Shown here: positions 4,214 through 51,976 of the stretch, in pieces
Layout of the letters: every line of letters begins with the position of its first letter
How positions within the stretch are numbered: the stretch's first letter is position 1
Sequence record: NC_079184.1
Origin: Escherichia phage vB_EcoM_DE15
DNA length: 53,998 bases
Direction: 5' to 3' (one strand)
Notes under the pieces: model-generated
Databases searched by the model: none
Seen by the model: only the letters and a program-made list of their open reading frames with translations
Told to the model about the DNA's origin: nothing
Program-made: the position numbers and the translations under genes

Positions 4214-4214
4214 A

Positions 4215-4445: not shown

Positions 4446-4447
4446 TC

Positions 4448-5686: not shown

Positions 5687-5695
5687 GGTAATTAA

Positions 5696-6004
5696 ATGGC
5701 TTCTTTACTCGAATTCTCAAATATTGCAAATGTTGCTAAGAATTCTATTCCGGAAAATCCGGACGTAATTGCGTACATGCGTGTTGATGTAAGTTTGTTA
5801 GCTTTTGTAATGGACCACATCAACCTTGTTGAAGCGCAGTTATCTCAGTCTTACGAAACAGTTGACACTCTTCGTGGACTTCGTACAGCAGAGCAACAGG
5901 CTTATGCTGACCTCATGGAGCAAAAGAACAAGCTCCAAGAACAACTGGCAGACGCACTTCAACAAATTGAAGACATGAAGCCACCAGCAGAATCAACCAA
6001 ATAA
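5696..6004 (+). CDS. Hypothetical protein with coiled-coil C-terminus (102 aa)
   Basis: ORF with RBS. Confidence 0.5.
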   Translation: MASLLEFSNIANVAKNSIPENPDVIAYMRVDVSLLAFVMDHINLVEAQLSQSYETVDTLRGLRTAEQQAYADLMEQKNKLQEQLADALQQIEDMKPPAESTK

Positions 6005-6022
6005 TCAAACTTAGGAGTTGTT

Positions 6023-6283
6023 ATGGCTACCAAAACAGGCATGATGATTGTCCCAAGCCGTAATAACTCTTTAAGCGGCTTTACACCATATAAAATCTAC
6101 GAAGTGATTTCTGGCACTGGTGAAGCAAACCTGTCAGAAGTTGCTTTGAAGTTGGGCCGTATGGTCCACTCCGAAATCTCCTGTAACGTAGTTGATGATG
6201 AAGGTAAAATCCGTTTTGTAACAATGGATTTCTTTCGTGAATTTAACCTCAAATCTGAATTAGGAGTCCTGTATCATGAATGA
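6023..6283 (+). CDS. Hypothetical protein (86 aa)
   Basis: ORF with GGAG RBS. Confidence 0.5.
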   Translation: MATKTGMMIVPSRNNSLSGFTPYKIYEVISGTGEANLSEVALKLGRMVHSEISCNVVDDEGKIRFVTMDFFREFNLKSELGVLYHE

Positions 6284-6464
6284 GGATGATGATGATGTTG
6301 TTTGCCCGAAGTGTGGCAGCAATAACGTAGACCATGTAGCACACGAAGCAGTGGGAATGTATGGTCCCGTAGTTCTGGACAGTGCATTCTGTGTAGATTG
6401 TGGTTTAAACATTTATCATGGAAAACTTATAGACAATAGTGGGAATATCCCGCCAAAAGGATAA
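6276..6464 (+). CDS. Small zinc-ribbon protein (CPKCG...CVDCG)
   Basis: Two CxxC pairs. Confidence 0.45.
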   Translation: MNEDDDDVVCPKCGSNNVDHVAHEAVGMYGPVVLDSAFCVDCGLNIYHGKLIDNSGNIPPKG

Positions 6465-6466
6465 TC

Positions 6467-6694
6467 ATGAAATTTAAATGTGTTGCTTCAACCAAAGATT
6501 ATGTTCCAGTTGGCTTCATCGTTGAAGGTGAAGCTATCTCACCTTTGGAATTTAAAGTGACCAAATCGGCTGAGAGTGTTTCTCCAGCATTTCGTAAAGG
6601 TGCTGTAGTGCCTATGAATGGTACATTCTGGACATGGCAGCGCGACCATGAAGCAGAATTTGCAGACATTTGTGAACAAGGTTTATTGCAATGA
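6467..6694 (+). CDS. Hypothetical protein, paralog A (75 aa)
   Basis: N-terminus MKFKCVASTK..., shares KFKCV.ST and W.W pattern with next gene. Confidence 0.5.
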   Translation: MKFKCVASTKDYVPVGFIVEGEAISPLEFKVTKSAESVSPAFRKGAVVPMNGTFWTWQRDHEAEFADICEQGLLQ

Positions 6695-11484: not shown

Positions 11485-12042
11485 ATGGAGAATCCGATGG
11501 AAAACCAAATTACTCAAGCAGTAGAACAACTTAAGTCCTGGCGTAGAGACGAAACCTTATTGGTTCGTTTCTACACAGGCGAAACTAATTCTGAATTTGT
11601 AGATGCGTGGATTGATGGCCTGTCTTGGCGTCACTATGATTTCGACATGCGGGAGTATTTGCATGAAGAATACGGCATTGAATACCCAGAAGCCGGTGCA
11701 TATGACGTAATTGAATCAAATGAAGAGGATGTTACCGAAGTTTGCTTTGCCAATGGACTGTTCAGCATTCGCAGATACGACAAATTCAACGAACTGCTTG
11801 TTGATACTGATTTGGATGTAATTCTTGCAGCATTCCGCAGTGGTGAGATTGATATTTTCACTGTGGATGATTTGAACGACATGTTTATTGCACGTTGCGA
11901 CTCAATTACAGAATATTTGAAGCAAAGTGAGGCACTGGATATTCCAGACCGACTTGCACCATATATTGATTGGGATGCAATCACCAGAGATTATGGAAGT
12001 GACTACATTTTCTCTGAGGGAATATTATTCTTAAATGCGTGA
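11485..12042 (+). CDS. Highly acidic protein, possible ArdA-like anti-restriction DNA mimic
   Basis: VRFYTGETNSEFVDAWIDGLSW resembles the ArdA N-terminal pattern as I recall it; strongly D/E-rich throughout. Confidence 0.35.
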   Translation: MENPMENQITQAVEQLKSWRRDETLLVRFYTGETNSEFVDAWIDGLSWRHYDFDMREYLHEEYGIEYPEAGAYDVIESNEEDVTEVCFANGLFSIRRYDKFNELLVDTDLDVILAAFRSGEIDIFTVDDLNDMFIARCDSITEYLKQSEALDIPDRLAPYIDWDAITRDYGSDYIFSEGILFLNA

Positions 12043-12724: not shown

Positions 12725-13273
12725 TTTCGATGGAATGTTTCCATCATATACATTTATCTTTTAACATAGGCCAAAGGGCCGGAATACTTATCCACAGAAA
12801 GCTATTCACTTGTTATAGGCGATGTATTGGGATGAATTGGAACTAAATAAGCAAGCTGTTAGGGCTGAATAATTAGAGGGTAATGCCTCATGCTTATGTT
12901 AGTCATTCGAAAATAGGTTTGTGCCACAAGCTGCTGGTGCTCCGAGGAAGTCGGACAAACAGGGCTTAGAGTGGCATAATCCGCACAAAACCGCGCCACC
13001 AGCTATGCCAAAGCGGGTGGTTTGGGTGAATGTATTGGGAAGGGTTGCAAAGCCTCTGTGACACGCCTGAGCCGCAAGGCGACGACACTCATGTGATTAG
13101 CGTATCGCACCCTAACGGGAGTAACCCTTCGCCAATGCAGTTATCCAGAATTGACACAAACGGTAGGCAGTGGCCCGATTTTCGGCCTTCCTGCGCTACT
13201 CTGTGGCCTGTTTCCTGGGCCAAAAGATGAGAAGAGAAGTCACAAACACTGAATCGAAAATTGGAGAGTTCCT

Positions 13274-13588
13274 ATGATTCGCAAGCATTCTGCTAAAGTT
13301 TTGACGTTAAGAAGGGTAAGGGTCGGTCTTACAGGTAATGAAGAGGAAACAATACACTTCGTCCTGGTTGGAGGTCTTTGGTACTACAATGGTACTAATG
13401 CCTTTTCCGTGAGAATCTCAGAAAAAGATGGGTTCTGGAAGCACACTTTCGAAGAGATACTAGGCACCAGTGCCAAATACACCCTTGCAGAAATTAAGAA
13501 ATATTTCTATATAGGCCCAAACAAGTCCATGCAAATAGCAATCCGCAAATGGACAACAAACCAACCGATTTACGGAGTTCCATTTTGA
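13274..13588 (+). CDS. Hypothetical protein (104 aa)
   Basis: GGAGAG RBS, ATG start. Confidence 0.45.
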   Translation: MIRKHSAKVLTLRRVRVGLTGNEEETIHFVLVGGLWYYNGTNAFSVRISEKDGFWKHTFEEILGTSAKYTLAEIKKYFYIGPNKSMQIAIRKWTTNQPIYGVPF

Positions 13589-16614: not shown

Positions 16615-16738
16615 TTACTGCATGATTGCACAACCAATCTATTTGGATGTTGCAGAAGTGAAAGTTTTATCACGCGAAACCAAAACACAGATTTTAGTCC
16701 ACAATGAAACGTGGGCACAAAAGTGTTCGAAACGATGA
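16538..16738 (+). CDS. Lipoprotein in alternate frame overlapping the previous gene, o-spanin-like
   Basis: MFRKKCLAVLIAMSIVSC: signal peptide with lipobox-like IVSC. Confidence 0.3.
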   Translation: MFRKKCLAVLIAMSIVSCSQSGFVSDYCMIAQPIYLDVAEVKVLSRETKTQILVHNETWAQKCSKR

Positions 16739-17181
16739 AATTATCAAAGCAGTATATTTACGACAGAGTTTCTAAGCGTCAGGAACCTACTTGGCAAGTA
16801 GACACAGATGGGTATTTATCTGCTTCGATTACTTTGCCAGAAGGCACTTTCAACGTAAGAAAACACATCTTGGTGTTCTACAAAACAAACGGATACATTC
16901 CAGATTTTGTGGACCATAAAGACAACAACAAATTAAACAATGCTCCAGACAACTTGCGAGAAGCAAGCAAGTGCCAGAATCAACAGAACTCCAAACGACC
17001 AAAGAATAACTCTTCTGGCGTTAAGGGTGTGTCACTAACCAAACACGGTAAATGGCAAGTTCGTATTATGGCAAATGGTGTGAAGCATTACGGTGGATTG
17101 TTTGACTCTCTCGAAGATGCCAAACAACACATAGAATCATTACGATTGAAATTACATAGTGATTTTGCTCGTAGTGTGTAG
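16735..17181 (+). CDS. HNH homing endonuclease with AP2-like DNA-binding domain
   Basis: DHKDNNKLNNAPDNLREASKCQNQQN (HNH) and GVKGVSLTKHGKWQVRIMANGVKHYGGLF (AP2-like). Confidence 0.65.
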   Translation: MKLSKQYIYDRVSKRQEPTWQVDTDGYLSASITLPEGTFNVRKHILVFYKTNGYIPDFVDHKDNNKLNNAPDNLREASKCQNQQNSKRPKNNSSGVKGVSLTKHGKWQVRIMANGVKHYGGLFDSLEDAKQHIESLRLKLHSDFARSV

Positions 17182-18097
17182 AGTTAGCTTACCCGACAGT
17201 GAGTGAACAAGACGGACGTCTATAACTTCCCACATGGCCTAGCTAGTTGGTGGTGTAAAAGACTGACCAAGGTGACGACAGCCAAAGTCGAGGGAGTGCG
17301 CGACTTTAAATAACGAGACTCTAGCAACTTGTTGCGATGATGGTGTAAGCCCATGCGTTTGGAAGCAGGACTCCAACTCAAACAAACCTGCAAGTTGCTC
17401 TGGGCATAACAATTGAAATTGCTGCCTCGCATTGAACGCGAGAAAGTTCAGGTAGTCACTTCCTAGAACAGTGTCCGAGAACACCCTCGCCAAAGTGCTT
17501 GAGAACGTTAGCTCTGTCTTGCCAGCATTAATGGCACGTTGGCCGCGTAAAGGCCACAGCGTCTGACCAACGTATCGGTCACCAAATTCAATGGATTCGT
17601 AGAGTTAATTAAACCTGCACGATGGGATAGGGATGAAGCATCCGAGGCCGACTGTGTAATTGTGAACTTATCGTTCGCCGAATCCGCCAATTTACCTCCA
17701 ACAGTTATGCCTCTGTTCAAAAGGCTCAAGAGAGCGTCTGGCATACCGTAGCGATACGGCTTAGTTGCGCTGATTGTGTTGTGCAGAAAGAAAGTTCAGG
17801 CTTTCGTTTGGGTTACTCCTCATCCCGAAGTTAGCTGGATTCAAAATCCAGACTATGTTCCTATACACATGAAATATGCAAGTCGAGGGTTCTTAATGTT
17901 CAAACATGATGCGAGCATTAAGCGGGTTTATACTTTTCCCCGATGGTCCCCATAAACAAGGCTGATTCACTTGGGCGGTTCGAATCAAATTTAATAAGTG
18001 TCTTGGCCGCAGTGGAAACATCATTTAAGCCAATGTTTTGTAATGTTCGTAATAGTCCACGTCAGGACACTTAATTAAATTTTAACTGGAGAGAGAC

Positions 18098-18319
18098 ATG
18101 AAAACTGCTGAAATTGCCGAAGAGATTTATAAGGCCGTAATAGCCAGCCAAATCACAAGTGAAGTCCTGCACATGGATATTGAAGAAGTTCGCAATGCCT
18201 TTGGTGGTTTTGCAATCTTGTCAATAGAAGCTGCGGAAGCACTGACAAACACGTACAATCAACGCGAATATGAAAAGCGTTCTGTACTAAATGCGTCATT
18301 ACAGGCGTCATTAAAATAA
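18098..18319 (+). CDS. Hypothetical protein (73 aa)
   Basis: GGAGAG RBS. Confidence 0.45.
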   Translation: MKTAEIAEEIYKAVIASQITSEVLHMDIEEVRNAFGGFAILSIEAAEALTNTYNQREYEKRSVLNASLQASLK

Positions 18320-18375
18320 TACCATTATCATGGTGCGGAGCTAATTAATCTCCCACCATATGAACCGGAGAGCAA

Positions 18376-19026
18376 ATGATTACTGCAACACTCGTTGACC
18401 ACATGGGCAGCGACCTCACAACTGTTAATGCTGCACGAGTTTCCTATGGTGCAGAGTCGCATGAAATATCTTTACGTGACGAGAAGCTGATTGAGTTTCT
18501 TGCAAAGCATAAGCACATTACGCCGTTTCGCCACGCACAGGTAACATTGCGTTGCAAAGCTCCAATCTTCATTGCACGTCAGCTTGGCAAACATCAAACT
18601 GGCTTTAGTTGGAATGAGGTTAGCCGTCGTTACAAAGATGGTGAAGCAATCTCTATTGAATGCTTTGTACCAGATGTTGTATTTGGTCGTCCTGAAAAGT
18701 TGATGACTCAGACTGCACAACCGTTGCCGCAAGATTTTGCTGACGATATTCATTATCGCATGGAAAGCCATAACAAGGCTTGCATCGCTGAGTATGAAAC
18801 GTTAATTGGTTTGGGGATTGCCCCAGAGCAAGCTCGCATGGTTCTTCCACAATCCATGACGACTGAATGGATTTGGACTGGCTCACTTTATGGCTGGGCA
18901 TCTATGTATAATCAACGTTCCTCCGAACATGCGCAATATGAAGTTCGCTTGTTTGCGGAAGAAGTGAATAAAATCATGTCAGAACTGTTCCCAATTTGTT
19001 GGAAGGCTCTGACCAACCAGGAATAA
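18376..19026 (+). CDS. thyX: ThyX-like flavin-dependent thymidylate synthase homolog with altered RHR motif
   Basis: AARVSYG, PFRHA, SRRY align to ThyX signature regions; canonical RHR position reads KHQ. Confidence 0.5.
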   Translation: MITATLVDHMGSDLTTVNAARVSYGAESHEISLRDEKLIEFLAKHKHITPFRHAQVTLRCKAPIFIARQLGKHQTGFSWNEVSRRYKDGEAISIECFVPDVVFGRPEKLMTQTAQPLPQDFADDIHYRMESHNKACIAEYETLIGLGIAPEQARMVLPQSMTTEWIWTGSLYGWASMYNQRSSEHAQYEVRLFAEEVNKIMSELFPICWKALTNQE

Positions 19027-33394: not shown

Positions 33395-33969
33395 CGCCAC
33401 CTCCAGCTCCTGCGGTGTCTGCTGTAGCAGGGACTGTAACTGCGGACGCATCTGCATCTGATGCCACTGTAACTGTAGACAAACTGTTTACGTTTGAGAA
33501 CTCTACAGCAACAGATTACAACTTCGCCGTTACTCCTGCTGTAGCTGGTGTTTCTGTGGCGGCAAACGGCACTGTGACTGTACTAAGTGCAACGACTACA
33601 GCCACTTCTGCGACAATCAAGGCAACGAATAAAACAGAGCCTGGTGTAACTGCATCTAAAGTGATTACGATTAAGCCTAAACCTCCTGCACCTACGGTGT
33701 CTGCTGTAGCTGGAGTTGTAACGGCTGATGCGTCTTCTACTGATGCCACTGTAACTGTAGACAAACTGTTCAAGTTTGGTAACTCTGCAGCAACAGACTA
33801 CACCTACGCTATTACGCCTCCTGTGATTGGCGTTTCTGTGGCTGCAAACGGTACTGTAACCGTCTTGAATGAGACAACTACCGATACCTCTGCCACGGTT
33901 AAGGCAACAAACAAAACAACCTCCAGCGTGACTGCAACTAAAGAAATTGCTATTACGCCGAAGTCTTAA
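33382..33969 (+). CDS. -1 frameshift extension of the previous gene adding two tandem ~95-aa Ig-like repeats
   Basis: No start codon or RBS; -1 frame opens at 33376; repeats share SAVAG..TADAS..DATVTVDKLF..GVSVAANGTVTVL..KATNKT. Confidence 0.5.
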   Translation, partial: PKAVTPPPAPAVSAVAGTVTADASASDATVTVDKLFTFENSTATDYNFAVTPAVAGVSVAANGTVTVLSATTTATSATIKATNKTEPGVTASKVITIKPKPPAPTVSAVAGVVTADASSTDATVTVDKLFKFGNSAATDYTYAITPPVIGVSVAANGTVTVLNETTTDTSATVKATNKTTSSVTATKEIAITPKS

Positions 33970-36777: not shown

Positions 36778-38226
36778 ATGGCAATTCCAATTTCCGACAT
36801 CATCCAGGTCAACATTGCGGTAAGTCCTAACGCTGTTGCCGTGGAAGGTTTTGGTCCTCTTCTGTTTCTGAGCAAGGAGTTTACTCCAGCCCCAGGCGAA
36901 GCTGTTCCTGTTCGTCAGTATACCAGCATGGCTGCTGTATCTGCTGATTTCCCATCTGGTGAAATTTATCAAGCTGCTCTGGCATGGTATTCTCAGAAAC
37001 CAACTCCAAAGTATTTCCTCGTAGGTGCTATCACCCATGAAGATGTTACTCTGGCAACTCCTGGTACTGTAACCGCATCTTCTGCTGCGACTCTGGAAAC
37101 CATTACTGCGTTAACTAATGGTGTTCTGTCCATTAATATTAACGGCGTTGATAAGTCTACTGCACCAATCAATTTCTCGTCCGCAGACGATTTTGCTGCT
37201 GCTGCATCAATGCTTAATGCTGCATTTGTTGCTGCCGATATTCCTGCAACTGTTACGCAGACCACAGGCACTTTCAAAATCACTACCAACGAAACTGGCG
37301 TAAATTCCATCATTGGTAACGTGTACGGTTCTGCTGCTGCGGCATTTAAACTTGATTCTGCTTCAAGCCCTGTGCATGTTCAAGGTACTGATGAAGTATC
37401 TATCGGCACCGACTTGAATGCAATCTTGAACTCTACGTTCGACTTCTTCTTTGTTGCTATTGACCGCAAATATCGTGGCAGTGCTGATGGTAATAACCAG
37501 ATGACTGTTGCCAAATGGGCAGAAGCAAACGGCAAAGTATTTGGTTGGGCTGATAGCGACCCGCAGATTCTGGTTCCTGGTGCTGAGTCTAGCTTTAAGC
37601 GTGCCAAAGAGCAGAACCTCCAACGCACTCTGTTGGTGTATGATGCGTCTGATAATGGCGACGAGTATCCAGAAGTTTCTATCCTGGGCCGTGCATCGAC
37701 TGTTAACTTCAACGTTGCAAACTCTTCGCTCGTTCTGGCATTTAAACAAGGTCCAGCTATCAAGACTGCTGACTTGTCCCCGAACCAGCTTGCTGCACTT
37801 GAGCGTGTGAATGGTAACGCATTCATCAACGTCGGCGGGAACACTATGTTCTACAACGGCAAGATGGCTGACGGTACTTGGTTCGATACCGTGCAGGGTG
37901 TTTCTTGGTTAACCTCCAAGATTCGTGCTAACGTGTTCAACCTGTTCTACACCTCCACTACCAAGATTCCTTGGACGGACACTGGTGTTGCTCTGGTGAA
38001 CCAGCAAGTAACCCTGGCTCTGGAACTGGCAGTGACCAATGGTCTGATTGCTCCAGGTTACGACAATGAAGGCAACTTCTATCCAGATGGCTACAAAGTC
38101 TTGGCTACCGACTTGGCTCTGATGCAATCTCAGAAAGGTGCTCGTATCTGGGAAGGCACTTCCTTCATTGCAATTGGCTCTGGCGCATTGCAGGGTGCAG
38201 TTATCTCTGGCAACTTCGTTCAGTAA
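36778..38226 (+). CDS. Tail sheath protein (putative)
   Basis: 482 aa followed by ~150-aa tube-like gene, chaperone and tape measure. Confidence 0.5.
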   Translation: MAIPISDIIQVNIAVSPNAVAVEGFGPLLFLSKEFTPAPGEAVPVRQYTSMAAVSADFPSGEIYQAALAWYSQKPTPKYFLVGAITHEDVTLATPGTVTASSAATLETITALTNGVLSININGVDKSTAPINFSSADDFAAAASMLNAAFVAADIPATVTQTTGTFKITTNETGVNSIIGNVYGSAAAAFKLDSASSPVHVQGTDEVSIGTDLNAILNSTFDFFFVAIDRKYRGSADGNNQMTVAKWAEANGKVFGWADSDPQILVPGAESSFKRAKEQNLQRTLLVYDASDNGDEYPEVSILGRASTVNFNVANSSLVLAFKQGPAIKTADLSPNQLAALERVNGNAFINVGGNTMFYNGKMADGTWFDTVQGVSWLTSKIRANVFNLFYTSTTKIPWTDTGVALVNQQVTLALELAVTNGLIAPGYDNEGNFYPDGYKVLATDLALMQSQKGARIWEGTSFIAIGSGALQGAVISGNFVQ

Positions 38227-38236
38227 GGTGCGATAA

Positions 38237-38692
38237 GTGAAACAATATTCTTTCTATAATACCGACCTCATTATCGACGGTGCTCGTGTAGATGGTTTTA
38301 CCTCTGGTAATTCCATCATCACTGCTCGTCGTAACGCACCTCAACACCTGCCTGTTATTGACGCGTATGGTAAGTTGGCTGTAGCTACTACGGCTGACTT
38401 ATCTGGTACTATTACTTTCCCGCTTCTGCAAACCGCAGACTGGAACGAAATCTTGTACAGCCGTGCTCAGTTAACTCAGGCAACTGGTCTGTCTGGCAAC
38501 AAATCTCTGTGGCAACCGCTCCAGATTCAGATTGTTGACAAGATGGGTGATGTGCTGGTCAATGGTGTAAACGGCGCTATCTTGCAGCAACCTGCAATTC
38601 AGCGTGGTGTGTCCTTCACGTCTAACGTGTGGTCTATCTTTGTAGAGCGCCTCCAGATTAAGACTGGTTCTTATCCGGAAATTGGCGTTTAA
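38237..38692 (+). CDS. Tail tube protein (putative)
   Basis: 151 aa, position. Confidence 0.45.
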   Translation: MKQYSFYNTDLIIDGARVDGFTSGNSIITARRNAPQHLPVIDAYGKLAVATTADLSGTITFPLLQTADWNEILYSRAQLTQATGLSGNKSLWQPLQIQIVDKMGDVLVNGVNGAILQQPAIQRGVSFTSNVWSIFVERLQIKTGSYPEIGV

Positions 38693-38703: not shown

Positions 38704-39162
38704 ATGGCTTGTGAATTGCTTCAACGTGAATTCACAAACTCCAAAGGCGAAACAGTGTTAGTCGTTGTTCGACAATTGTCGGCTTCGGCTGCACTGTCTC
38801 TTCACGCGGAGTTGGTAAGCAAGTTAGGCTCACGAGTATTCCCATTCATCGAAGGTAAATATAACTTCGCTGATATTATATACTTGATGCAGCAAGTAGA
38901 GCATACCGTATTCACAGAATTGTTTAAGCGTGTTATCAGCATGCACTCGTCCATAGATGGACAAGAAATCAAACCTGCATTATATGATATGCAGTTCAAT
39001 GGCGAATTGATGTTGTCTTGCCATGTCTTTGCTTTCGTGCTCGAAGCAAACTTCCTTGATTTTTTCAAGCAAGGGCTCGAAATCAACGAACAGAGACGAT
39101 TGGAGGCGGAGGAAGCATCCAAGCTGGCAGAGCAGAAGAATTCGAGTCCGGAGACAGTTTAG
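38704..39162 (+). CDS. Tail assembly chaperone (G-like)
   Basis: Acidic C-terminus; TTTTTTC slippery site at 39060; position before tape measure. Confidence 0.55.
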   Translation: MACELLQREFTNSKGETVLVVVRQLSASAALSLHAELVSKLGSRVFPFIEGKYNFADIIYLMQQVEHTVFTELFKRVISMHSSIDGQEIKPALYDMQFNGELMLSCHVFAFVLEANFLDFFKQGLEINEQRRLEAEEASKLAEQKNSSPETV

Positions 39163-39338
39163 TATCCCTGTTCCCCGACATAAAATATTTTCTGCATCGT
39201 CCTATAATCGAAGATAGTTCTCTCTGCAAGTTACGTGAATTGCAAGATGGAACCTATTCGATTATGGACTTATTGCTATTCCACGACATTCTCGATTTGC
39301 GTAAGAAACTCGAACCAGTAGATGAAGACAATGGCTAA
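39060..39338 (+). CDS. -1 frameshift extension of tail assembly chaperone (GT-like product)
   Basis: -1 frame opens exactly at the slippery heptamer (stop TGA 39057-39059) and runs 92 codons to 39338. Confidence 0.5.
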   Translation, partial: FFQARARNQRTETIGGGGSIQAGRAEEFESGDSLVSLFPDIKYFLHRPIIEDSSLCKLRELQDGTYSIMDLLLFHDILDLRKKLEPVDEDNG

Positions 39339-42300
39339 TCAAAAAGATTTAATGAAGTTGAGCGTTAATGAGTTAATTGCATTAGGCTCTCAAAGCGGTC
39401 TGACTTTCCATGCTGGTATGAAGAAGTCGCACATGGTTCAACAACTTAGTGCGAGCGCTGCTTCGGGATGGCTGGATACAAATGCAGAATTAATGGGTGG
39501 GTCGTTCGAAGATGACAGTTTGATTACTGAATCTTTGGGTGACTCTTCCATGATTTCAGACGCTGCCCACATTGCACAAGTGCTTTCAAGTGCTGGCTAC
39601 ACAGAAGCATTTCATGCAGCAATGAATGGCCCATCACACCATGTAGAAGCTGTTCACGCATACATGGAAAGGCTTGGCGTTAGCACAGATGATGTGTGGA
39701 TGCACATGCCAAAGCCAAATCCGAACCTACCGCAAGGTAGCTTCAACATGCTTAATGCCTATATGCGAGATACTTTGCAAGGGCATCAAGATATTATGCC
39801 GGAAATCCCAGGCCATTATGCTGGGGATATTATGGCTGAATACTCCACCAACCGTGGAAACATTGCTGACTCCTACAACTACATGGCCCACATGTATGTT
39901 GACCGTGAGCAATATAGCAATCATGAACAATACGCAAGAGACATTAGTCGAGTTGCCAAACGTCTGGAACGAGAGTTACCCTCAGCCTTTAAGGAAGTTG
40001 GGTATACATCCGCATCTAATGTAGGAAATAAATCGGCCCCACATATTTCTTACATGGATGCACTCCCTCAGATTGGTTCTCCTTCGATTGTTTCTGGCAT
40101 TGCACATCCTCGTGCACCTCTTAACGCATCTGGACTTCCTCTTGGTTCTTATGGTTCTGGCATAAATCCAGAATACTCCCTCACTGCCTCGCTAACTGGT
40201 GGCACTGGTTGGAGTGAACCAAGCAAGGCTTTATATTCCTCTATTAGCGAAGCTGTTAAATCTGCTGCCAAAGTTTATTCTGGTTCCAAAGGGATGATGA
40301 ATACTCGTCACGAAGTATCTGACCGTGACATGATTATGGACAGTGCAACTCGCTACACAGATTTGGAAGAAGCCAGAAGCGGATACGAAAACCTTCGTTC
40401 TGAACTTGCAGATGAACCAGCTTATTCTGCATCAAGTGTTCGAGCTATTCTCGAAAACACTTACGATAGAATGGATGCCGAACCTGTTCGCATTCCAAAG
40501 ATGAAGGGAGCTTCACAGCGAGTCGATAAAGATTCACTGTCAACATCTACAGATTTTACAGCACAACTTGGAGAGGCCACCAATTGGAACTCTGCAAGAA
40601 TGCGTCGTGAGGAACTTGCGATTGCAAATATGGATAGTGCTGGATTCCGTGATGTATCAGACTATGGTACAGGACGTTCCGAGTCCCCCGTCCGATTCCA
40701 TGACTTAGAACAGGGCAGCCAAGAGTGGCTGGACTTCCGTAAAAATTATGACATAACTGGCTCAACTGTTGGAACTTTCTTAGGAAACAACCCATACACC
40801 CGACCTTGGGCTGGTATGATTGATAAGATTGGCTTATCTCGTAGTAAAGAGCACAGCGATTTCACCAAAAAGATGTTCGCTGATGGTCACAGGACGGAAG
40901 AAGAAGCACGCGCTCGTGTTGGTAAGGAATTTGGATTCGATATCAAACAAATTGGCGCTATAACAAATGACAACTATCCCGCCTTCATGTATTCTCCTGA
41001 TGGTCTTATTGGGGATGATGCCATTTGGGAGCACAAGAATCCGCAAAGGGCTGGTAAGTTTGCTGACCTTCTTAAAGGCGACCATCCAGACTACATGGAC
41101 CAAATTCAATTTGGTATGCACGTTTCTGGCCGTTCTCGTGCTTTGTTCTCACAAACCATCAACGACGAAACACGTTCGCAGTGGATTGAGAAGGACGAAG
41201 GATGGTACGAAAGAAACCGAAATCGCCTTGATTCTGTGCTTGGCCGTCTTGATGCTGGGCGAGAGTTTGTTAGAAACAATGCTGGATTAGAACGAGAAGA
41301 GCTGATTGCTGGTGCAAGAAGTGCAATGACTGGTGATGGAATCTGGAAAGATATTCGTCAAAGGTCTACTCGTGGCTATTCTGCTGCTGCTGGTACTCCA
41401 GAAGACCCGTTTATTGGTTCACGTTCTTCGTACAATCCAGAAGCATCCTACTCTGACTACAAGCCAAACTTTGTAATGCACGAGCAAAACTTTCCGGCAA
41501 CTACTGGAAATGGTGACACCGGAAATGACTCGATGGCATTGTCTGTTAAGAAAGGTATTCTTGCTGCTCAGGAAGAAAACAGGCAGAAAGGTATTGGTGC
41601 AGATGCAGACTTTGATGGCAAAGCCGATTCAATGGGCTGGAACCGTGAAAGATTTGATGCTGCCAATGGCGGTGGATATTCTGGCGGTGGTGGTGGTCGT
41701 GGCGGCAACTTCACAAGTGGTGGCAACTACTATGATGACTACGGTCGCATGGGTGGTTCGTTAGCTGCTGGCATTGCTGGTGGCAGTATTGGTTCAGCAA
41801 CCAACGGAGTTATGCAAGCATTGATGGCAACTCCTGCTGGACGTATGGCTGCTGTAGGCATTGGTGCTATTCAGATTGGCAATGAAGCTGCTGAATACAT
41901 GAATGACTTTATCGGCAACTCGCTTGATGCTGGTGTGATAAATCCTAATGAATATTCTTCCATGTCGCAAGGCTTGGAGATGTTAGGACTCAACTCACAA
42001 CAAGCGGCACGTCTGAATCAAACCACACATAGTGCCTATAACACCATGCTTAACGGCGACCCCAGCGCCGCTGTGAACATCGTTCGCGGCAGTAGGGGAT
42101 TGCTCACCATAGGTGATATTCGTGCGACAGGCGGCGACCCTGTGGCCCTGGCTCGCATCATGCAGGAAAGGGGCAAGGAGCGTGGCTGGAGTCAGGCCCG
42201 TATCGCAGGTGCTGCCGAAATGGCTGGCCTACAGGGTATGGCGCGAGCATACGACCGCACGGAATACAGCCATGAGCAAGCTGGCTCGGTGGTAGAAGCG

Positions 42301-43047
42301 GGTAGAAACTCCGACTTTGCCGAAGGTATGGCCCAATCGGAAATGTTGCAGGGAAGCCGCGCACGGATGCTGCCGAGCTACAACGTGCCACAAAGTGTCC
42401 TATCTAATGGCGCTTCTGTATTTGAGGCTGGCAGTGATGCACTTGACAGTGTACGCACTGGATTCAACAGGACACGAGAGTTTGCTGGAAGTGTTTACGA
42501 CTTTATTGCTCAGGAAGAATCTGGCGGTCGTGAATACAACAAAGATGGTTCTCGTGTAACAAGTCCAACTGGCGCTCGTGGGATAATGCAGATTCTCCCT
42601 TCGACTGCCCGTGACCCAGGATTTGGAATCAGGCCGTCTGATGGAACTCCAGAAGATGATGCACGAGTTGGTCGTGAATACTATGACGCAATGTACAAGC
42701 GTTATGGCGACCACGAGAAAGCAATGGCTGCTTACACCGATGGTCCTGGCACTGTTGACAAAGCTGTTGATAAGAATGGGTTGGATTGGCTTACTGCTGT
42801 TCCTGCACAGGCACAGAATCGCGTCAAAGCATTCCGTGAATGGTCCAAGTCTTCTCAATCTTTGGAAGAAGGTGCTACAGGGTTTACTCGTAATGGAATG
42901 TCATACGGTCAAACCCAAACTGTTGTTAATGTTAAGATTGATGCTAAGGTCAACAACCAGACTGCTTCTGCTACAGTTGCAATTCCTGGTGGTCAGACTG
43001 TGACTCAACAAATGAACATGAACAACGGTGCGCAACAAAGACGTTAA
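39322..43047 (+). CDS. Tape measure protein (1241 aa) with internal YqaJ-like PD-(D/E)xK nuclease domain and C-terminal lytic transglycosylase (SLT) domain
   Basis: QGSQEWLDFRKNYDITGSTVGTFLG and YSPDGLIGDDAIWEHKNP (YqaJ-like); EESGGREY...GARGIMQILPSTA (SLT); Gly-rich hydrophobic stretch. Confidence 0.65.
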   Translation: MKTMANQKDLMKLSVNELIALGSQSGLTFHAGMKKSHMVQQLSASAASGWLDTNAELMGGSFEDDSLITESLGDSSMISDAAHIAQVLSSAGYTEAFHAAMNGPSHHVEAVHAYMERLGVSTDDVWMHMPKPNPNLPQGSFNMLNAYMRDTLQGHQDIMPEIPGHYAGDIMAEYSTNRGNIADSYNYMAHMYVDREQYSNHEQYARDISRVAKRLERELPSAFKEVGYTSASNVGNKSAPHISYMDALPQIGSPSIVSGIAHPRAPLNASGLPLGSYGSGINPEYSLTASLTGGTGWSEPSKALYSSISEAVKSAAKVYSGSKGMMNTRHEVSDRDMIMDSATRYTDLEEARSGYENLRSELADEPAYSASSVRAILENTYDRMDAEPVRIPKMKGASQRVDKDSLSTSTDFTAQLGEATNWNSARMRREELAIANMDSAGFRDVSDYGTGRSESPVRFHDLEQGSQEWLDFRKNYDITGSTVGTFLGNNPYTRPWAGMIDKIGLSRSKEHSDFTKKMFADGHRTEEEARARVGKEFGFDIKQIGAITNDNYPAFMYSPDGLIGDDAIWEHKNPQRAGKFADLLKGDHPDYMDQIQFGMHVSGRSRALFSQTINDETRSQWIEKDEGWYERNRNRLDSVLGRLDAGREFVRNNAGLEREELIAGARSAMTGDGIWKDIRQRSTRGYSAAAGTPEDPFIGSRSSYNPEASYSDYKPNFVMHEQNFPATTGNGDTGNDSMALSVKKGILAAQEENRQKGIGADADFDGKADSMGWNRERFDAANGGGYSGGGGGRGGNFTSGGNYYDDYGRMGGSLAAGIAGGSIGSATNGVMQALMATPAGRMAAVGIGAIQIGNEAAEYMNDFIGNSLDAGVINPNEYSSMSQGLEMLGLNSQQAARLNQTTHSAYNTMLNGDPSAAVNIVRGSRGLLTIGDIRATGGDPVALARIMQERGKERGWSQARIAGAAEMAGLQGMARAYDRTEYSHEQAGSVVEAGRNSDFAEGMAQSEMLQGSRARMLPSYNVPQSVLSNGASVFEAGSDALDSVRTGFNRTREFAGSVYDFIAQEESGGREYNKDGSRVTSPTGARGIMQILPSTARDPGFGIRPSDGTPEDDARVGREYYDAMYKRYGDHEKAMAAYTDGPGTVDKAVDKNGLDWLTAVPAQAQNRVKAFREWSKSSQSLEEGATGFTRNGMSYGQTQTVVNVKIDAKVNNQTASATVAIPGGQTVTQQMNMNNGAQQRR

Positions 43048-43119: not shown

Positions 43120-44229
43120 ATGCCGTGGCTACGCAGAGTTGAGGTAATAGTTTCACGTAAAGAAGACCCAAGCATTCGAACAATATTTAAATCACATCGT
43201 ATTGATTTTGAAGTTCGTTCTACTGTTGGGTGGCCCGCCGATACAGCAAACATAACTCTGTTTAACTTGTCATTAGAAGAAGTTAAGTTCCTCCAGGACA
43301 AGACCTACGGAGATATGTATATTGAAATTCGTGCAGGGTATGCAGAAGATGAACGTTCGGACTCTGGTGGTGGAACCTCTAGTGGCGGTGTTAAGAAGTT
43401 TGGTCAAAAGGCCGAACAGAGCGACCGCGTAACAGTGTCCACATCACTACCAACCATCTTCTCTGGAATTATTACAAACGCAGTTGGCTACAGAAAGCCT
43501 CCTGAACATGTAACACAATTGTTTTGTATTTCCAAGGCATATGGTGCATCCACTGATTTCAAACAGTTGACTGCAATCAAGCCTGGAACCAAGCTCATTG
43601 ATGCAATGCGCTCAATGTGTTCTGACTATGGATTCAATACCATCTCCACATTTGGTGTTGAAGATTCGGTCCTTGAAACAGTGATGCCTCGTGGGCGTGT
43701 GTTTCATGACACATTCTTAAACGAATTTCGTAACATGCTTGGCGAGTATAACTTGCTATACACTGTTACAACTGGTGAAGTGCAAATCTTCCCAGACACC
43801 TTTGGTGATAAAGATGCAGTAAACAGAATGTCCAAAGACAGAGAGCCAGTTAAGCTGGATGCCAACTCAGTCATTGGAAACCCTGTTGCTGGAATCTGCA
43901 CCTACACTTTAAACACATTCCTAAACCCATCTTTCCAACCAGGGATGATTCTTGATGTATCTCCTTTGCTTGGAGACAAGCTACTTGCCAATGGTGTGAC
44001 CTCTGTTTCAGGGGAAGGTATTGTACTCAATACAGACCAGTCCGTATTCCGGTGGGCTGTTGAAGACAAATACTTTATCATGGAAGTTGTGCATAAAGGT
44101 TCGACTCACACAACCACTTATCAAACATCAATCACTGCAATATTGGGTGGCAATACAATGATGGGTGGTAAGGAAGCTGCGTGGCAGGAAATGTATGCTA
44201 ACAGTGGAATGGCAATGGAGTCATTTTAA
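43120..44229 (+). CDS. Baseplate-proximal virion protein (Mu gp43-like by position)
   Basis: Position after tape measure. Confidence 0.35.
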   Translation: MPWLRRVEVIVSRKEDPSIRTIFKSHRIDFEVRSTVGWPADTANITLFNLSLEEVKFLQDKTYGDMYIEIRAGYAEDERSDSGGGTSSGGVKKFGQKAEQSDRVTVSTSLPTIFSGIITNAVGYRKPPEHVTQLFCISKAYGASTDFKQLTAIKPGTKLIDAMRSMCSDYGFNTISTFGVEDSVLETVMPRGRVFHDTFLNEFRNMLGEYNLLYTVTTGEVQIFPDTFGDKDAVNRMSKDREPVKLDANSVIGNPVAGICTYTLNTFLNPSFQPGMILDVSPLLGDKLLANGVTSVSGEGIVLNTDQSVFRWAVEDKYFIMEVVHKGSTHTTTYQTSITAILGGNTMMGGKEAAWQEMYANSGMAMESF

Positions 44230-48409: not shown

Positions 48410-49554
48410 TGACTCAACGTCTTAAGTTTAATTTTCCCTGGGCGCAAGATGGTGAAGTTAAAGACCCGGACTTGGATACCACTGCGCCAAGTTTTATCGA
48501 AAACAGGTACGCCAATCTGGGCTGGGAAGCTGAAAAGCCTCCCAATGAGTGGCAGAACTTCTTATCCCAAATTAGTGATTTGAAGATTATATCTCTGCTG
48601 TTCAGTGGCATTGCTGAGTTTGATTCAAGTGTGACTTATCAAGTTGGTGCAGTATCTTCTCTCAATGGTGTTGTTCGTGTATACACACCCACAGGTTGGG
48701 AAGAGGTGATGGACCTCAAGAGGGTCGACTACCTTAATGACGTCAGTAACTTGAAGTCCCTCTACGATAATCACTTGGCTGCAACCAATCCACATAAAGA
48801 AACTGTGGATACCATTACAGATAAAACTTATAGCAAAACTGATATAGATGATGCCTTTGGAAGCCCTACAGACCCAAGGACCATCGTGTATCATAAGCTA
48901 CAAACTGGCCGCGTACACCAAGAAACTCCACAACAGCTTGGAACACTTCCAACATCTGGTGGCAAGTTTTCCGGACCTGTGTCACTGTTGGGTGGTATGA
49001 AGTTTGGAACAAACATCACAATTCAAATGAACCCAGGAAATGGGAGAATTGAGATGCGAGCAGGTAATAGGATTCTATCCATTGATGCACTTGGCAATGT
49101 TCTGTGGAGCATAGTTGGTGGTGCAGAATATCCAGTGATGACAGAGCTGAATTACTCAGAATTTCAGATTCGCTGGGGAAACAGGTTTGCACTCCCTACA
49201 CCATATTTGCAAATGGACTTTGCGAGAAGCATTAATGATGGTTCATCTGTTCGTGACTGGACAATCACAACCACAGAAACACCAGTGTTTCACCCTAGCG
49301 GTGGGTTGAAGATAGATGACAACACTGTCACGTTTTCAGGATTTAATATCACTATTCCGACAACCATAGTTGCACTCACCAGAAACTCTGCTGGCGCACT
49401 TGGGAGGGGCAACTCAGATGCTCCATCTGGAGGATATACGAGCCTAAACACCCTGCTTACAAACTTGGGTGTATCAGATGCTGCATACATTGTCAGTATT
49501 ACTTGTTACCCAACACTTACCGCTTATCAGAAATCAATGTTAGTGAGGCCATAA
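48409..49554 (+). CDS. Tail fiber protein (proximal)
   Basis: Position; fiber-like composition. Confidence 0.45.
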   Translation: MTQRLKFNFPWAQDGEVKDPDLDTTAPSFIENRYANLGWEAEKPPNEWQNFLSQISDLKIISLLFSGIAEFDSSVTYQVGAVSSLNGVVRVYTPTGWEEVMDLKRVDYLNDVSNLKSLYDNHLAATNPHKETVDTITDKTYSKTDIDDAFGSPTDPRTIVYHKLQTGRVHQETPQQLGTLPTSGGKFSGPVSLLGGMKFGTNITIQMNPGNGRIEMRAGNRILSIDALGNVLWSIVGGAEYPVMTELNYSEFQIRWGNRFALPTPYLQMDFARSINDGSSVRDWTITTTETPVFHPSGGLKIDDNTVTFSGFNITIPTTIVALTRNSAGALGRGNSDAPSGGYTSLNTLLTNLGVSDAAYIVSITCYPTLTAYQKSMLVRP

Positions 49555-50939
49555 TGGCAATTCGTCCTAAACTGAACCGAGTCTGGACTTCAAACAACTC
49601 TGTCGCAAGACGTGACCCAGGGGATGAAAAATACCTCAAGGGTTGGGTTGCGGAGATTCCGACCTATCAGGTTCTTAACTACCTGCAATACAAGATTGAC
49701 ACCACAATGCTTGCACAAGCAGAGCGTGGAATCTTTGAGTGGGGAAATGATGTAAGTTATGGCGTTGGTAGTTTGGCTTGGGACGAAACAGACAAGACTA
49801 TCTATGTTTGTACTGTCACCAACCCTAACAAAACACTACGCCCAAGTGCAAACTCTGCACAGTGGAGTCCAAGCTCCATCCAAGTTCCTCGTGCAAATTA
49901 TGACTCAATTGTGGCAGCAATCAATGCACACATTGCAGACATAACCTCAAACCCGCACAAAGTAACTGCTGCACAAATTGGTGCATACAACAAGTCCGAA
50001 CTTGATTCGATTGTTGCCAACTATCGTGCAATGGTACAGGCACACGTAACGGACTACAACAACCCGCACCAACTTACTGCAACTCAGGTTGGTGCTGTTC
50101 CTGTAACTGGTGGCGCATATACTGGTGAAGTAACTTTCACAACTGTGTATCTGAATGATTCCAAAACTGCACAGATTGTAAATGACGGTGGATTGTATCT
50201 TCGTAATGGAAGCTACTACCTTGGAGTCAATGGAACCACAGGAAATCCAGAGGCAGGCACTGCTTCAAGTAAGTCGCGTATTGTAACGGAACTAAACTTC
50301 CCAGATGTTAAGGCAGCACAAGAGCCTGGGTATGCTCACCTGGAACCAACATTCCAAATGAACTTTATAAACTCACTTAACATAGTGAGGGGTTCTGGAA
50401 CAGTGTCTTCTACAGAAGGCATGGATATTCGATACGACCAAGCTAATGGTGGTGTGTTCCTGTTTGACCAGGGTGGCATTGGACATTCGATAAGCGGTAG
50501 CGACGAACTTGTAGCAACTGGTGAAAACGTGCCATTTACGATTGCATTTGACTACTACCCAAACAATCCGATAGATTCTACATCTTGGCAGTTTACCATA
50601 GGACTACTTGGGTATAAGGTACTGTTCCGAGTAAACAACAACATGTACTTGGAGATTAGAAACTCTTCTGGCTCCAATGTGCAGAGATGCGCCAACCCCT
50701 ACGTTGTAGCTCCATATACATGGAGCAGGATTGTCGCAACATACGACGGAACTACATATCGTCTATATGTAAATGGCGTACAGATTGCTGAAGAGGCTGG
50801 TGGGTTTGCAACACATAACAACTCTGCCAGTCGCAAATTCATGTTGAACCTTGCAGCAAATGTTCAGAAGGCTGTTAGATTCCGTGGATTTAGGCTCTGG
50901 CCTTACTCGCTTAATGCCAAGCAAATTTCAACTTTATAG
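49554..50939 (+). CDS. Tail fiber protein with NPH-type repeats and C-terminal concanavalin A-like lectin domain
   Basis: NPHKVTAAQIGAY / NPHQLTATQVGAV repeats; C-terminal YRLYVNGV-type jelly-roll pattern; ATG 49554 with GAGG RBS. Confidence 0.5.
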   Translation: MAIRPKLNRVWTSNNSVARRDPGDEKYLKGWVAEIPTYQVLNYLQYKIDTTMLAQAERGIFEWGNDVSYGVGSLAWDETDKTIYVCTVTNPNKTLRPSANSAQWSPSSIQVPRANYDSIVAAINAHIADITSNPHKVTAAQIGAYNKSELDSIVANYRAMVQAHVTDYNNPHQLTATQVGAVPVTGGAYTGEVTFTTVYLNDSKTAQIVNDGGLYLRNGSYYLGVNGTTGNPEAGTASSKSRIVTELNFPDVKAAQEPGYAHLEPTFQMNFINSLNIVRGSGTVSSTEGMDIRYDQANGGVFLFDQGGIGHSISGSDELVATGENVPFTIAFDYYPNNPIDSTSWQFTIGLLGYKVLFRVNNNMYLEIRNSSGSNVQRCANPYVVAPYTWSRIVATYDGTTYRLYVNGVQIAEEAGGFATHNNSASRKFMLNLAANVQKAVRFRGFRLWPYSLNAKQISTL

Positions 50940-50947
50940 GATTCAAA

Positions 50948-51976
50948 ATGGCTAAAGGTTATTCTTTAGATGCGTTGGTTAAGGAGAAGTGGTCGAGATA
51001 TGCCGAATCCTTAACCAGTGGGTTGGACTTTAATGACTTCTACGGTGTGGAAAAGTCCGGCATATACATGGTTGCTGCCAATAATATAGCCACTACACTG
51101 CTAAACATGCCAGAAAAGGTTGCTGGTGTACTCGAGGTAATGCCCTGGACATCAACGGGGCTAAGCATCCAAAGGTACACTACATACAACCTTGCCAGAC
51201 TATATGTTCGCACAAAGGAGTCCCCAAATGTGGACTGGGGTCCGTGGAAGCTTCAGATAGACGCATCAAACATATTTAATACCATATACCCAATTGGTAT
51301 TGTATTGCAGTTTGATAACGCCACCAACCCAAACAATTCATTCCCAGGCACAGTTTGGGAACAAATCCTAGACGGTCGCTCTGCTCGTTCTGCAACTTCT
51401 GCTGAAGCTGGTACAACTGCTGGTCAAATTGGTTCCACTGGTGGCTCTGATACCGCATCTCTTGCTGTGGCAAACATTCCTGGACACACTCACGGAATGC
51501 AAAACCACACGCACAGTATTGCAGCACACACCCACACGATGGCCCACACCCACTCCATCAACCACGACCACGGTGCCGTGACGTCAAGTTCCAGTGGTGC
51601 ACATACACACAGTGTGTCCGGTACTGCCGCAAGCAACGGTGCTCACACGCACACAGCCGGAACTGGTTACACTGGTGCAGGTAACTACATTGGTGCAGGT
51701 ACTGGGACTGGCCTGGGTACGATGACCACTAACTCTGCTGGTGCGCACACACACAGTGTAAGCGGAACTGCTGCGTCTGCTGGTGCACACACCCACTCTG
51801 TAGACTTACCTAACTACACAGGTACAAGTGGTGGCTCCAGTGCTGCCAATACGGGCGGTACGGCGTTAACCACTGGTGGGCCAAGCAACAATGAAACAAC
51901 CTCAACCGGAAGCGGCACAGCCTTCACTGTGACCAACGCCGTTCACTACTATGCCTTCTGGAAACGGGTGGCTTAA
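50948..51976 (+). CDS. Tail fiber / receptor-binding protein with His-x-His repeats
   Basis: GHTHGMQNHTHSIAAHTHTMAHTHS and three GAHTHSVSGTAAS-like units. Confidence 0.55.
   Translation: MAKGYSLDALVKEKWSRYAESLTSGLDFNDFYGVEKSGIYMVAANNIATTLLNMPEKVAGVLEVMPWTSTGLSIQRYTTYNLARLYVRTKESPNVDWGPWKLQIDASNIFNTIYPIGIVLQFDNATNPNNSFPGTVWEQILDGRSARSATSAEAGTTAGQIGSTGGSDTASLAVANIPGHTHGMQNHTHSIAAHTHTMAHTHSINHDHGAVTSSSSGAHTHSVSGTAASNGAHTHTAGTGYTGAGNYIGAGTGTGLGTMTTNSAGAHTHSVSGTAASAGAHTHSVDLPNYTGTSGGSSAANTGGTALTTGGPSNNETTSTGSGTAFTVTNAVHYYAFWKRVA

Follow-up and report, generated by a model that had tools for sequence, protein, structure and literature searches.

Why would a phage carry a DNA-degrading domain inside its tape measure protein? 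The question is raised by one gene of Escherichia phage vB_EcoM_DE15, from which we analyzed a stretch of 53,998 nucleotides (nt) (sequence record NC_079184.1; hereafter the window). The window spans an essentially complete Carltongylesvirus genome; this genus belongs to the Chaseviridae, the phiEcoM-GJ1-like myoviruses, which have a T7-like RNA polymerase. The gene is an open reading frame (ORF) at 39322-43047 on the plus strand that starts with ATG, encodes 1241 amino acids (aa) and shares 97.6% DNA identity with its counterpart in vB_EcoM_SA91KD. Its name is inconsistent across public records, which call it "tail fiber," "putative endonuclease" (in one GenBank record), "tape measure protein," "tail tube initiator," "virion structural protein" or "hypothetical protein"; the full-length PHROG match, phrog_19855, is likewise a "virion structural protein." A preliminary description of the window, made from the letters alone, had read the product as a tape measure protein with an embedded YqaJ-like nuclease domain and a C-terminal SLT domain. 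Here, we find that profile, fold and residues all place the embedded domain in the YqaJ/lambda-Exo family, and that the module is an exchangeable cassette. We then weigh what such a nuclease may do when the phage genome enters the cell.

The nuclease domain and its two motifs are located in the window as follows.

40684 to 41331, plus strand: YqaJ/lambda-Exo-like PD-(D/E)xK exonuclease domain, aa 455-670, detected by Pfam, phmmer, AlphaFold, Foldseek and hhalign
40711 to 40764, plus strand: N-terminal signature QGSQEWLDFRKNYDITGS, aa 464-481, with Q464-G465...W469...R473...T479-G-S481
40993 to 41043, plus strand: catalytic motif SPDGLIGDDAIWEHKNP, aa 558-574, with S-P-D560-G-L...E570-H-K572

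Performing a Pfam search, we found that the YqaJ profile (PF09588) matches aa 468-604 with an E value of 2.3e-13; the score is 51 bits, where the cut-off is 22, and the match runs over profile positions 1-149 of 150. PHROG families of RecE-like exonucleases matched aa 454-647 (E = 1e-18 to 1e-19). A phmmer search against the PDB sequences retrieved LHK-Exo (3SYY), the alkaline exonuclease of Laribacter, with E = 6e-8 and an alignment that includes SPDGL...E-x-K. Structure prediction agreed with the profiles. The AlphaFold model of aa 431-693, with 35 homologues, reached a predicted local distance difference test score (pLDDT) of 87.5 and a predicted template modeling score of 0.84. Foldseek matched this model in the PDB to lambda exonuclease (3SLP, 1AVQ and 3SM4; E ~1e-10, probability 1.0) and to LHK-Exo (3SYY; target-normalized template modeling score 0.79-0.80, root-mean-square deviation 3.5-3.6 Å); the next matches were the mimivirus Cas4-like protein R354 and Cas4/MGME1 nucleases. 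Low-confidence linkers flank the domain on both sides in the prediction.

When the family profile was aligned by hhalign with lambda Exo itself (NC_001416), the probability was 95% (E = 2e-8), and the key residues could be paired. In the N-terminal signature, which the preliminary description had recognized correctly, Q464 and G465 correspond to lambda Exo Q19 and G20, W469 to W24, R473 to R28, and T479 and S481 to T33 and S35. R28 is the residue of the 5′-phosphate pocket that specifies 5′-phosphorylated duplex ends, as is reported in the work on 3SM4. The D...E-H-K motif, earlier called catalytic-like, pairs with the lambda Exo active site, D560 with D119, E570 with E129 and K572 with K131, the residue mutated in 3SM4. 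Two further correspondences fall outside the 40993-41043 catalytic span: E526 with E85, and Q594 and Q596 with Q157 and Q159. The titles of the PDB entries describe lambda Exo as a toroid acting on 5′-phosphorylated duplex ends.

The preliminary description had named poor conservation of the catalytic residues as a ground for dropping the nuclease, and we found quite the opposite. A homologue search with the 1241-aa protein returned 88 proteins, on which the databases already display the Pfam domain; 87 full-length homologues, 39-94% identical, were aligned with MAFFT. Q464, G465, W469, R473, T479, S481, E526, D560, E570, K572, Q594 and Q596 are 100% conserved in 87/87 of them, and the nuclease core ranks with the better-conserved segments of the whole protein. 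Because the profile match, the fold match and the conserved catalytic residues agree, the nuclease very probably works. Judging from residues and model together, we predict with good confidence that it is a catalytically active 5′-3′ exonuclease of double-strand ends.

How far does this fusion extend? Searching 50,697 phage records by tblastn with the domain, we recovered it at full length in 82, always within the tape measure gene. All of these records are phages of Chaseviridae type, which infect Escherichia, Yersinia, Erwinia, Pantoea, Proteus and Pectobacterium; the weaker matches were all stand-alone exonucleases of RecE/YqaJ/Cas4 type. A phmmer search of 1.84 billion cluster representatives added about a dozen distant long proteins (962-1534 aa) with the domain in mid-chain. 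Five of the seven that were scanned exceed the Pfam YqaJ threshold, and two of those five also carry an SLT domain. The catalytic residue set is kept in 11/11 distant long proteins at a domain identity of ~33-41%. A fold search of BFVD further matched a 925-aa protein of Aeromonas phage pAh6.2TG and a 1229-aa protein, at only 15-16% identity. Four distant proteins and one close relative lie in contigs (L005, L006, L007, L008 and L009), where the catalytic set is kept and the gene occupies the identical tail slot, in the order terminator, sheath, tube, chaperone, giant protein, baseplate. This distribution, together with the conserved slot, shows that the nuclease fusion is an old, family-wide trait and not an accident of a single genome.

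A few observations on these contigs and records are given in their own right. In L005, a RelA_SpoT-domain protein of 348 aa (17583-18629) lies in the baseplate cluster between a baseplate protein and the sheath initiator, and may be another virion-associated enzyme. L009 has a 2.7-kb stretch without called genes (3909-6669) between the chaperone and the 962-aa YqaJ-bearing protein, which may be a split or mis-called N-terminal part, and a PAAR-motif gene (13239-13535) in its baseplate cluster. Record PP952070.1, "Staphylococcus phage Pel53" (host Staphylococcus hyicus), contains a tape measure gene of ~90% DNA identity with a GJ1-type nuclease cassette; the host assignment looks doubtful.

Comparing the homologues pairwise, we observed that the nuclease module does not always travel with the rest of the protein.

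40660 to 41480, plus strand: exchangeable nuclease cassette, which recombines as a unit between tape measure backbones

Over the backbone, homologue P0006 and the window protein are 98% identical, and at aa ~432-714, where 113 of the 134 differences are found, only 60%. The modules of P0006 and P0008, by comparison, are 97% identical on backbones of 85%, and those of GJ1 and MLP1 are 93% identical on backbones of 70%. At least three nuclease module types, differing by about 40%, circulate in the genus: one in the window, a second in P0006 and P0008, and a third in GJ1 and MLP1. The exchange is also visible in the DNA. Against L007, the contig of P0006, identity drops from ~96-97% in the flanks to about 60-66% between nt ~40660 and ~41480 and then recovers, and both breakpoints fall within the predicted flexible linkers on either side of the folded domain. 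In this comparison (24 kb, otherwise ~96-98% identical), the only other diverged spots were a patch of the sheath gene (37122-37700, 68-86%) and the tail-fibre genes (49122-49500 and 50322-51900, 44-77%). We considered an intein or a homing element as the origin of the cassette and rejected both: the protein shows no Hint, LAGLIDADG or HNH signal in Pfam, and the module is a true lambda-Exo fold, in frame and present in every homologue.

Is the protein in fact the tape measure? The genes around it bear on this question.

36778 to 38226: tail sheath, 482 aa, upstream of the 1241-aa gene
38237 to 38692: tail tube, 151 aa, upstream of the 1241-aa gene
38704 to 39162, plus strand: tail assembly chaperone, 152 aa (phrog_11820, E = 2.5e-75), directly 5′ of the 1241-aa gene
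39060 to 39338, plus strand: slippery heptamer T TTT TTC (39060-39066) with a -1 extension, predicting a 211-aa chaperone fusion of G/GT type
43120 to 44229, plus strand: baseplate hub protein (phrog_196 "baseplate hub," E = 5e-52), the downstream neighbor

The gene is in the tape measure position, as the preliminary description had stated. It comes after the sheath, the tube and a chaperone with a -1 frameshift, and before the baseplate hub, which is followed by the wedge genes. The heptamer has the correct X XXY YYZ phase, and the -1 frame stays open for 90 codons to a stop that ends at 39338, inside the start of the 1241-aa gene. The same heptamer occurs at identical offset and phase in Mangalitsa (L001:5737) and in the metagenomic relative L007 (L007:9730), whose chaperone orthologue matches Pfam Phage_TAC_15. 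Tape measure genes are preceded by just such a G/GT-type arrangement, and the conserved frameshift supports the tape measure slot. The frameshift carries no annotation in the relatives' records examined.

Several deposited names ("tail fiber," "putative tail fiber," "tail tube initiator protein") would instead make the product a tail fibre or some other structural protein. In keeping with this, the 1241-aa protein has no match to a Pfam tape-measure family, and its AlphaFold model lacks a long coiled coil. Such a reading has to contend with the position of the gene between the frameshifting chaperone and the baseplate hub, and with the actual fibre genes, Laminin_G_3 and Gp10_C-type proteins, which sit downstream at 48.4-52 kb. 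The 1241-aa ORF is also the sole one of more than 500 aa in the tail module, so that no other tail ORF is long enough for the tail, and it contains an SLT domain, as does the ejected core protein of T7. The Mangalitsa, PP101, 4HA13 and PYps23T records annotate the gene as a tape measure. The orthologue in phage 4HA13 was among the most abundant virion proteins by liquid chromatography-tandem mass spectrometry (PMC9699118). We thus give the fibre reading hardly any credence and are confident that the protein is the tape measure protein of this Chaseviridae myovirus.

The length of the protein was also compared with that of the tail. Tape measure proteins usually span ~1.5 Å per residue and contain long helical ruler segments. 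At that rate 1241 aa would reach ~186 nm, compared to the 110-130 nm reported for Chaseviridae tails (PMC8472413), which gives an actual 0.9-1.05 Å per residue. The surplus roughly equals the two enzymatic modules and fits several hundred residues being globular. In the AlphaFold model of the full-length protein (aa 1-1200, pLDDT 65), long low-confidence linkers join folded modules. According to this prediction, the architecture of the tape measure would have to be corrected to globular modules on long linkers in place of a classical coiled-coil ruler.

Because the tail is short for 1241 residues, part of the chain is not ruler, and one could argue that the nuclease is an inactive relic, a captured recombinase domain that merely adds bulk or length in the tube as a spacer or plug. 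Other tape measure proteins do tolerate inserted domains. A spacer would not be expected to look like the domain described above, whose active site and 5′-phosphate pocket are fully invariant across 39-94% identity, three cassette types and the distant relatives, and whose core belongs to the better-conserved parts of the protein. We regard a relic as very improbable.

The remaining modules of the protein are listed from the N terminus.

39322 to 40461, plus strand: conserved N-terminal helical modules, aa 1-380 (pLDDT 55-85 over aa ~80-380)
40462 to 40683, plus strand: low-confidence linker, aa ~381-454 (pLDDT 29-45), holding the upstream breakpoint of the nuclease cassette
41662 to 41886, plus strand: poly-Gly run and Gly/Ala-rich, moderately hydrophobic segment, aa 781-855 (by composition, hydropathy and low pLDDT)
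41887 to 42366, plus strand: conserved helical module, aa 856-1015 (pLDDT 77-90)
42484 to 42861, plus strand: SLT lytic transglycosylase domain, aa 1055-1180, with the catalytic E1066-S1067 at nt 42517-42522

The C-terminal SLT domain, proposed earlier from its motif, was borne out by a Pfam match (PF01464, aa 1061-1152, E = 1e-12, 48 bits against a cut-off of 21.3). Its motifs E1066-S1067...GIMQI...AYTDG are all present, and the catalytic glutamate is conserved: E1066/S1067, Q1090, Y1138 and G1141 are kept in at least 99% of the homologues. By fold, Foldseek matched the domain to Slt enzymes and to the phage core-protein chain 7EYB_I (2.7 Å over 120 columns), which we take to be T7 gp16, the PDB entry title giving only "core proteins." Long Foldseek alignments to Slt-type transglycosylases span the SLT domain jointly with the helical module aa 856-1015, the most conserved part of the backbone (mean identity 0.75-0.78). 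The N-terminal helical modules had no Pfam match and no PDB fold match, and Pfam found no other domain in aa 1-433 or 687-1060. A HeH/Rho_N-like DNA-binding motif suspected from its pattern at aa ~8-45 was dropped, as Pfam at E up to 10 was empty in aa 1-73 and 1-433 and there was no fold match. The Gly-rich hydrophobic stretch of the preliminary description survived in part. The stretch is Gly-rich at aa ~781-855, but only moderately hydrophobic, with a maximum Kyte-Doolittle value of 1.2 over 19 residues, which rules out a clear transmembrane helix; it may still be a candidate membrane-interacting segment.

One further property sets the embedded nuclease apart. The 1241-aa protein contains zero cysteine, and so do 99/99 embedded versions (86 full-length homologues and 13 distant long proteins). 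The 101 stand-alone YqaJ-like proteins from the same search have on average 3.6 cysteines, or 1.39 per 100 aa, and only two have none. In the window phage, the replication and other cytoplasmic enzymes contain 1.4-2.6% cysteine; cysteine is also lacking from its sheath (482 aa) and tube (151 aa) and from a fibre protein (342 aa; 50948-51976). The loss of cysteine indicates that the nuclease has long been adapted to life in a virion and to ejection, and would fit a non-native passage through the oxidizing periplasm.

What, then, would an ejected nuclease do? Tape measure proteins are generally understood to leave the tail C-terminus first. If so, the modules read from the N to the C terminus (nuclease, Gly-rich segment, helical module, SLT domain) match the order cytoplasm, membrane, periplasm. 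We propose that a few copies of the protein are held in the lumen of the tail tube, about 4 nm wide (PMC9022992), in a non-native, cysteine-free state. Upon contraction of the sheath, the protein would exit, its SLT module would cut peptidoglycan in the periplasm, and the Gly-rich segment would help form or line a passage through the inner membrane. The N-terminal half with the nuclease would emerge last, just ahead of the DNA, and refold on the cytoplasmic side. We put the chance that the nuclease is delivered into the cell slightly above even.

Once inside, the nuclease, probably an oligomeric ring like the trimer of lambda Exo, which the oligomeric nature of tape measure proteins makes plausible, would engage 5′-phosphorylated double-stranded DNA ends and resect the 5′ strand. 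The sole such end reliably there at that moment would be the end of the phage genome, which by the relatives' records should lie within a direct terminal repeat of ~3.1-3.2 kb, so that the information in the resected repeat would also be present at the other genome end. The resection would turn a RecBCD-sensitive blunt end into a 3′-tailed end, which RecBCD handles poorly. It would also expose complementary repeat strands whose annealing could form circles or concatemers, to be finished perhaps by the SSB, polymerase and ligase of the phage. We infer that the phage's own genome ends are a plausible main substrate, at odds somewhat short of even, and for the proposal as a whole, an ejected nuclease acting on the phage's own ends at entry, we estimate a probability of roughly 45%.

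The repeat is taken from relatives, since the window is a single-copy representation without the terminal repeat. The Mangalitsa record has a PhageTerm-predicted direct terminal repeat of 3,234 bp that includes the RNA polymerase gene, and for 4HA13 a direct terminal repeat of 3,120 bp is reported. The only long direct repeat in the window is a 282-nt tandem duplication (33399-33962) inside ORF 33415-33969, with two copies 77% identical, between the cement/minor-capsid and the major capsid genes, and possibly represents a domain duplication in a head protein.

We also checked for the partner genes that a lambda-type exonuclease usually has. In the Mangalitsa regions examined, no gene is annotated as an annealing protein of the RecT, Red-beta, Erf or Sak type. 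PHROG scans of ten early/middle ORFs of the window (seven unassigned) revealed neither an annealing protein nor a second lambda-Exo-like gene; they gave only SSB, an anti-restriction protein, an HNH endonuclease and a FEN-type exonuclease. The Mangalitsa annotation and the window scans together show SSB, a FEN/T7-gp6-type 5′-3′ exonuclease, endonuclease VII and ligase, and a polymerase is also encoded. As no annealing partner was found among these ORFs, and the genes on either side of the nuclease-bearing gene belong to the tail, we do not file the tape measure nuclease as a two-component recombinase of the Exo/Bet, RecE/RecT or YqaJ/YqaK kind. The HNH endonuclease (ORF 16711-17181; phrog_99, E = 9e-46), lying among early/middle genes, may be a homing endonuclease. 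The anti-restriction protein (ORF 11485-12042; family phrog_14321, E = 8e-52) suggests by its sequence that the phage also carries a conventional, expressed anti-defence gene.

A number of these observations weigh against end processing at entry. The annealing partner is missing among the scanned ORFs, and the terminal repeat is missing from the window itself. A FEN/T7-gp6-like 5′-3′ exonuclease is already encoded to serve replication and recombination, so that an entry-stage resection enzyme is not obviously needed. Unless its activity is controlled, an enzyme that resects the leading end would leave the early RNA polymerase gene, which lies in the terminal repeat, in single-stranded form. 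It is by analogy that a myovirus tape measure protein, or its nuclease domain, would reach the cytoplasm; the Gly/Ala-rich segment that might help it across is only weakly hydrophobic, and the AlphaFold model offers helices of at most about 30 aa with long low-confidence linkers and no long coiled-coil ruler. Finally, a housekeeping role alone does not explain the swapping of cassettes and a divergence equal to that of the tail-fibre genes.

This last point leads to a different target. The ejected nuclease could, along the lines of the preliminary description, be an offensive or anti-defence effector that attacks DNA not its own before the phage genes are expressed: broken or replicating host DNA, linear plasmids, prophage intermediates, co-infecting phage DNA or some DNA component that belongs to a defence system. 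A cassette that is exchanged between near-identical backbones and has diverged like tail-fibre genes while its active site is kept bears the typical signature of an arms race, and the lack of an annealing partner among the genes scanned makes it unlike a recombination module. It would, moreover, be made in advance and delivered with the DNA like virion-delivered anti-defence proteins (concept in PMC5512222). The enzyme class, however, disfavors host DNA as a target, because lambda-Exo-type enzymes need free double-stranded ends. The architecture and the arginine of the 5′-phosphate pocket point to such ends, which intact circular chromosomes and plasmids do not offer. Only a few copies would be present per virion, and infection by a Carltongylesvirus condenses the nucleoid gradually, over 20-40 min, with no immediate DNA loss reported (PMC13340011). 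Escape of an exposed globular module from host sensors or inhibitors could explain the diversity of the cassettes equally well. Taken together, an attack on foreign DNA seems unlikely to us, yet the diversification of the cassettes keeps it the strongest competitor of end processing.

The conserved R473, equivalent to the lambda Exo 5′-phosphate pocket residue, admits another role that requires little cutting. The domain may act in the virion as a holder or gate of the DNA end, which binds the protruding genome end and couples its release to the tape measure protein's exit, or caps it against RecBCD as Mu N or T4 gp2 do, with catalysis secondary or tightly restrained. The tape measure protein does adjoin the genome end in the virion, and the Mu-like context of the tail module recalls the injected end-binding protein of Mu. 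Against a pure holder, E526, D560, E570 and K572 are as invariant as the binding residues, suggesting selection on the chemistry too, and the domain occupies the stretch from 37 to 54% of the chain rather than the N-terminal tip, which is closest to the head. We consider this role rather improbable.

A more speculative variant of end processing would make the nuclease part of DNA entry itself. The rest of the ejected tape measure protein would hold a processive nuclease ring at the inner-membrane passage, threading the leading end, and the ring would reel in the first ~3 kb by degrading the 5′ strand. The energy of hydrolysis would thus pull in the redundant terminal repeat, as a phage counterpart of the strand-degrading uptake in natural transformation. 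A RecBCD-proof 3′ tail would be left behind for later annealing with the other repeat, and the shuffling of cassettes would reflect escape from host factors that sense or block the exposed machine. Such a membrane-tethered entry motor and end processor is a long shot.

How does the proposed end-processing nuclease compare with known systems? The lambda Exo/RecE/YqaJ enzymes (PF09588; 1AVQ, 3SLP, 3SM4, 3SYY) share with it the common fold, the D...E-x-K triad, the extra metal-binding glutamate, the Q-x-Q motif and the arginine of the 5′-phosphate pocket. They are, however, stand-alone enzymes (about 200-300 aa) that are synthesized after infection from genes beside Red-beta or RecT; in the lambda genome (NC_001416), bet abuts exo. 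Here the domain is internal to a 1241-aa virion protein, cysteine-free and cassette-exchanged, and an annealing partner is absent from the genes examined.

Tape measure proteins with embedded enzymes reportedly include T5 pb2, with a C-terminal peptidase, and that of mycobacteriophage TM4, with peptidoglycan-hydrolase motifs. They resemble the protein here as tail-lumen proteins expelled ahead of the DNA with catalytic entry modules, and its SLT domain is of that kind. To our knowledge, the enzymatic activities known in tape measure proteins act on the cell wall or the membrane, and a full-text literature search turned up no report of a tape measure protein that contains a nucleic-acid enzyme. 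Thus, the nuclease domain is displayed in the databases, yet no published description of it was found.

Proteins that are made in advance and enter with the DNA offer a second comparison. P1 DarB, the N4 virion RNA polymerase, T4 Alt and the T7 gp14-16 ejectosome are multidomain proteins of this type (PMC5512222), as is proposed here. A 2017 survey of polyvalent proteins mentions neither YqaJ nor tape measure proteins (PMC5512222). An architecture that targets both the wall and nucleic acids fits the polyvalent concept; the anchors listed in the survey, such as MuF, portal, relaxase and DarB, do not occur here. Polyvalent and internal virion proteins are capsid-internal or portal/MuF-associated cargo, and in this case the carrier is the tape measure protein. 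Within the T7 ejectosome, gp16 has an SLT domain, as does the tape measure protein here.

Two groups of delivered proteins come closer in function. Mu N and T4 gp2 are injected proteins that guard the genome ends from RecBCD, and Mu N also holds the ends together. Both are non-catalytic binders of unrelated folds, whereas the full active site found here would, by analogy, lead one to expect resection besides end binding. Pne1, an effector of metamorphosis-associated contractile structures, and the nuclease effectors of type VI secretion systems are nucleases loaded in or on a contractile tail tube and delivered by contraction. These are separate cargo toxins directed against the DNA of the target cell, with no genome following, unlike a nuclease within the tape measure of a replicating phage.

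The inconsistent naming of this gene matters in practice too, since phages of this type have been proposed for the biocontrol of Shiga toxin-producing E. coli (STEC), avian pathogenic E. coli (APEC), Erwinia and Yersinia. For the biology of infection, the fate of the entering genome end in the first seconds, and that of the myovirus tape measure protein, is poorly understood. The Chaseviridae and their distant relatives keep a complete lambda-exonuclease active site in the very protein that leaves the tail just before the DNA. If it is active in the cell, these phages would possess a pre-made processor of their own terminal repeats, serving RecBCD evasion or the formation of circles or concatemers; alternatively, it would represent a new class of injected anti-host nuclease, or a part of the DNA-entry machinery. 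The natural cassette variants, the zero cysteine content and the clear catalytic residues make the system tractable in an easy E. coli phage.

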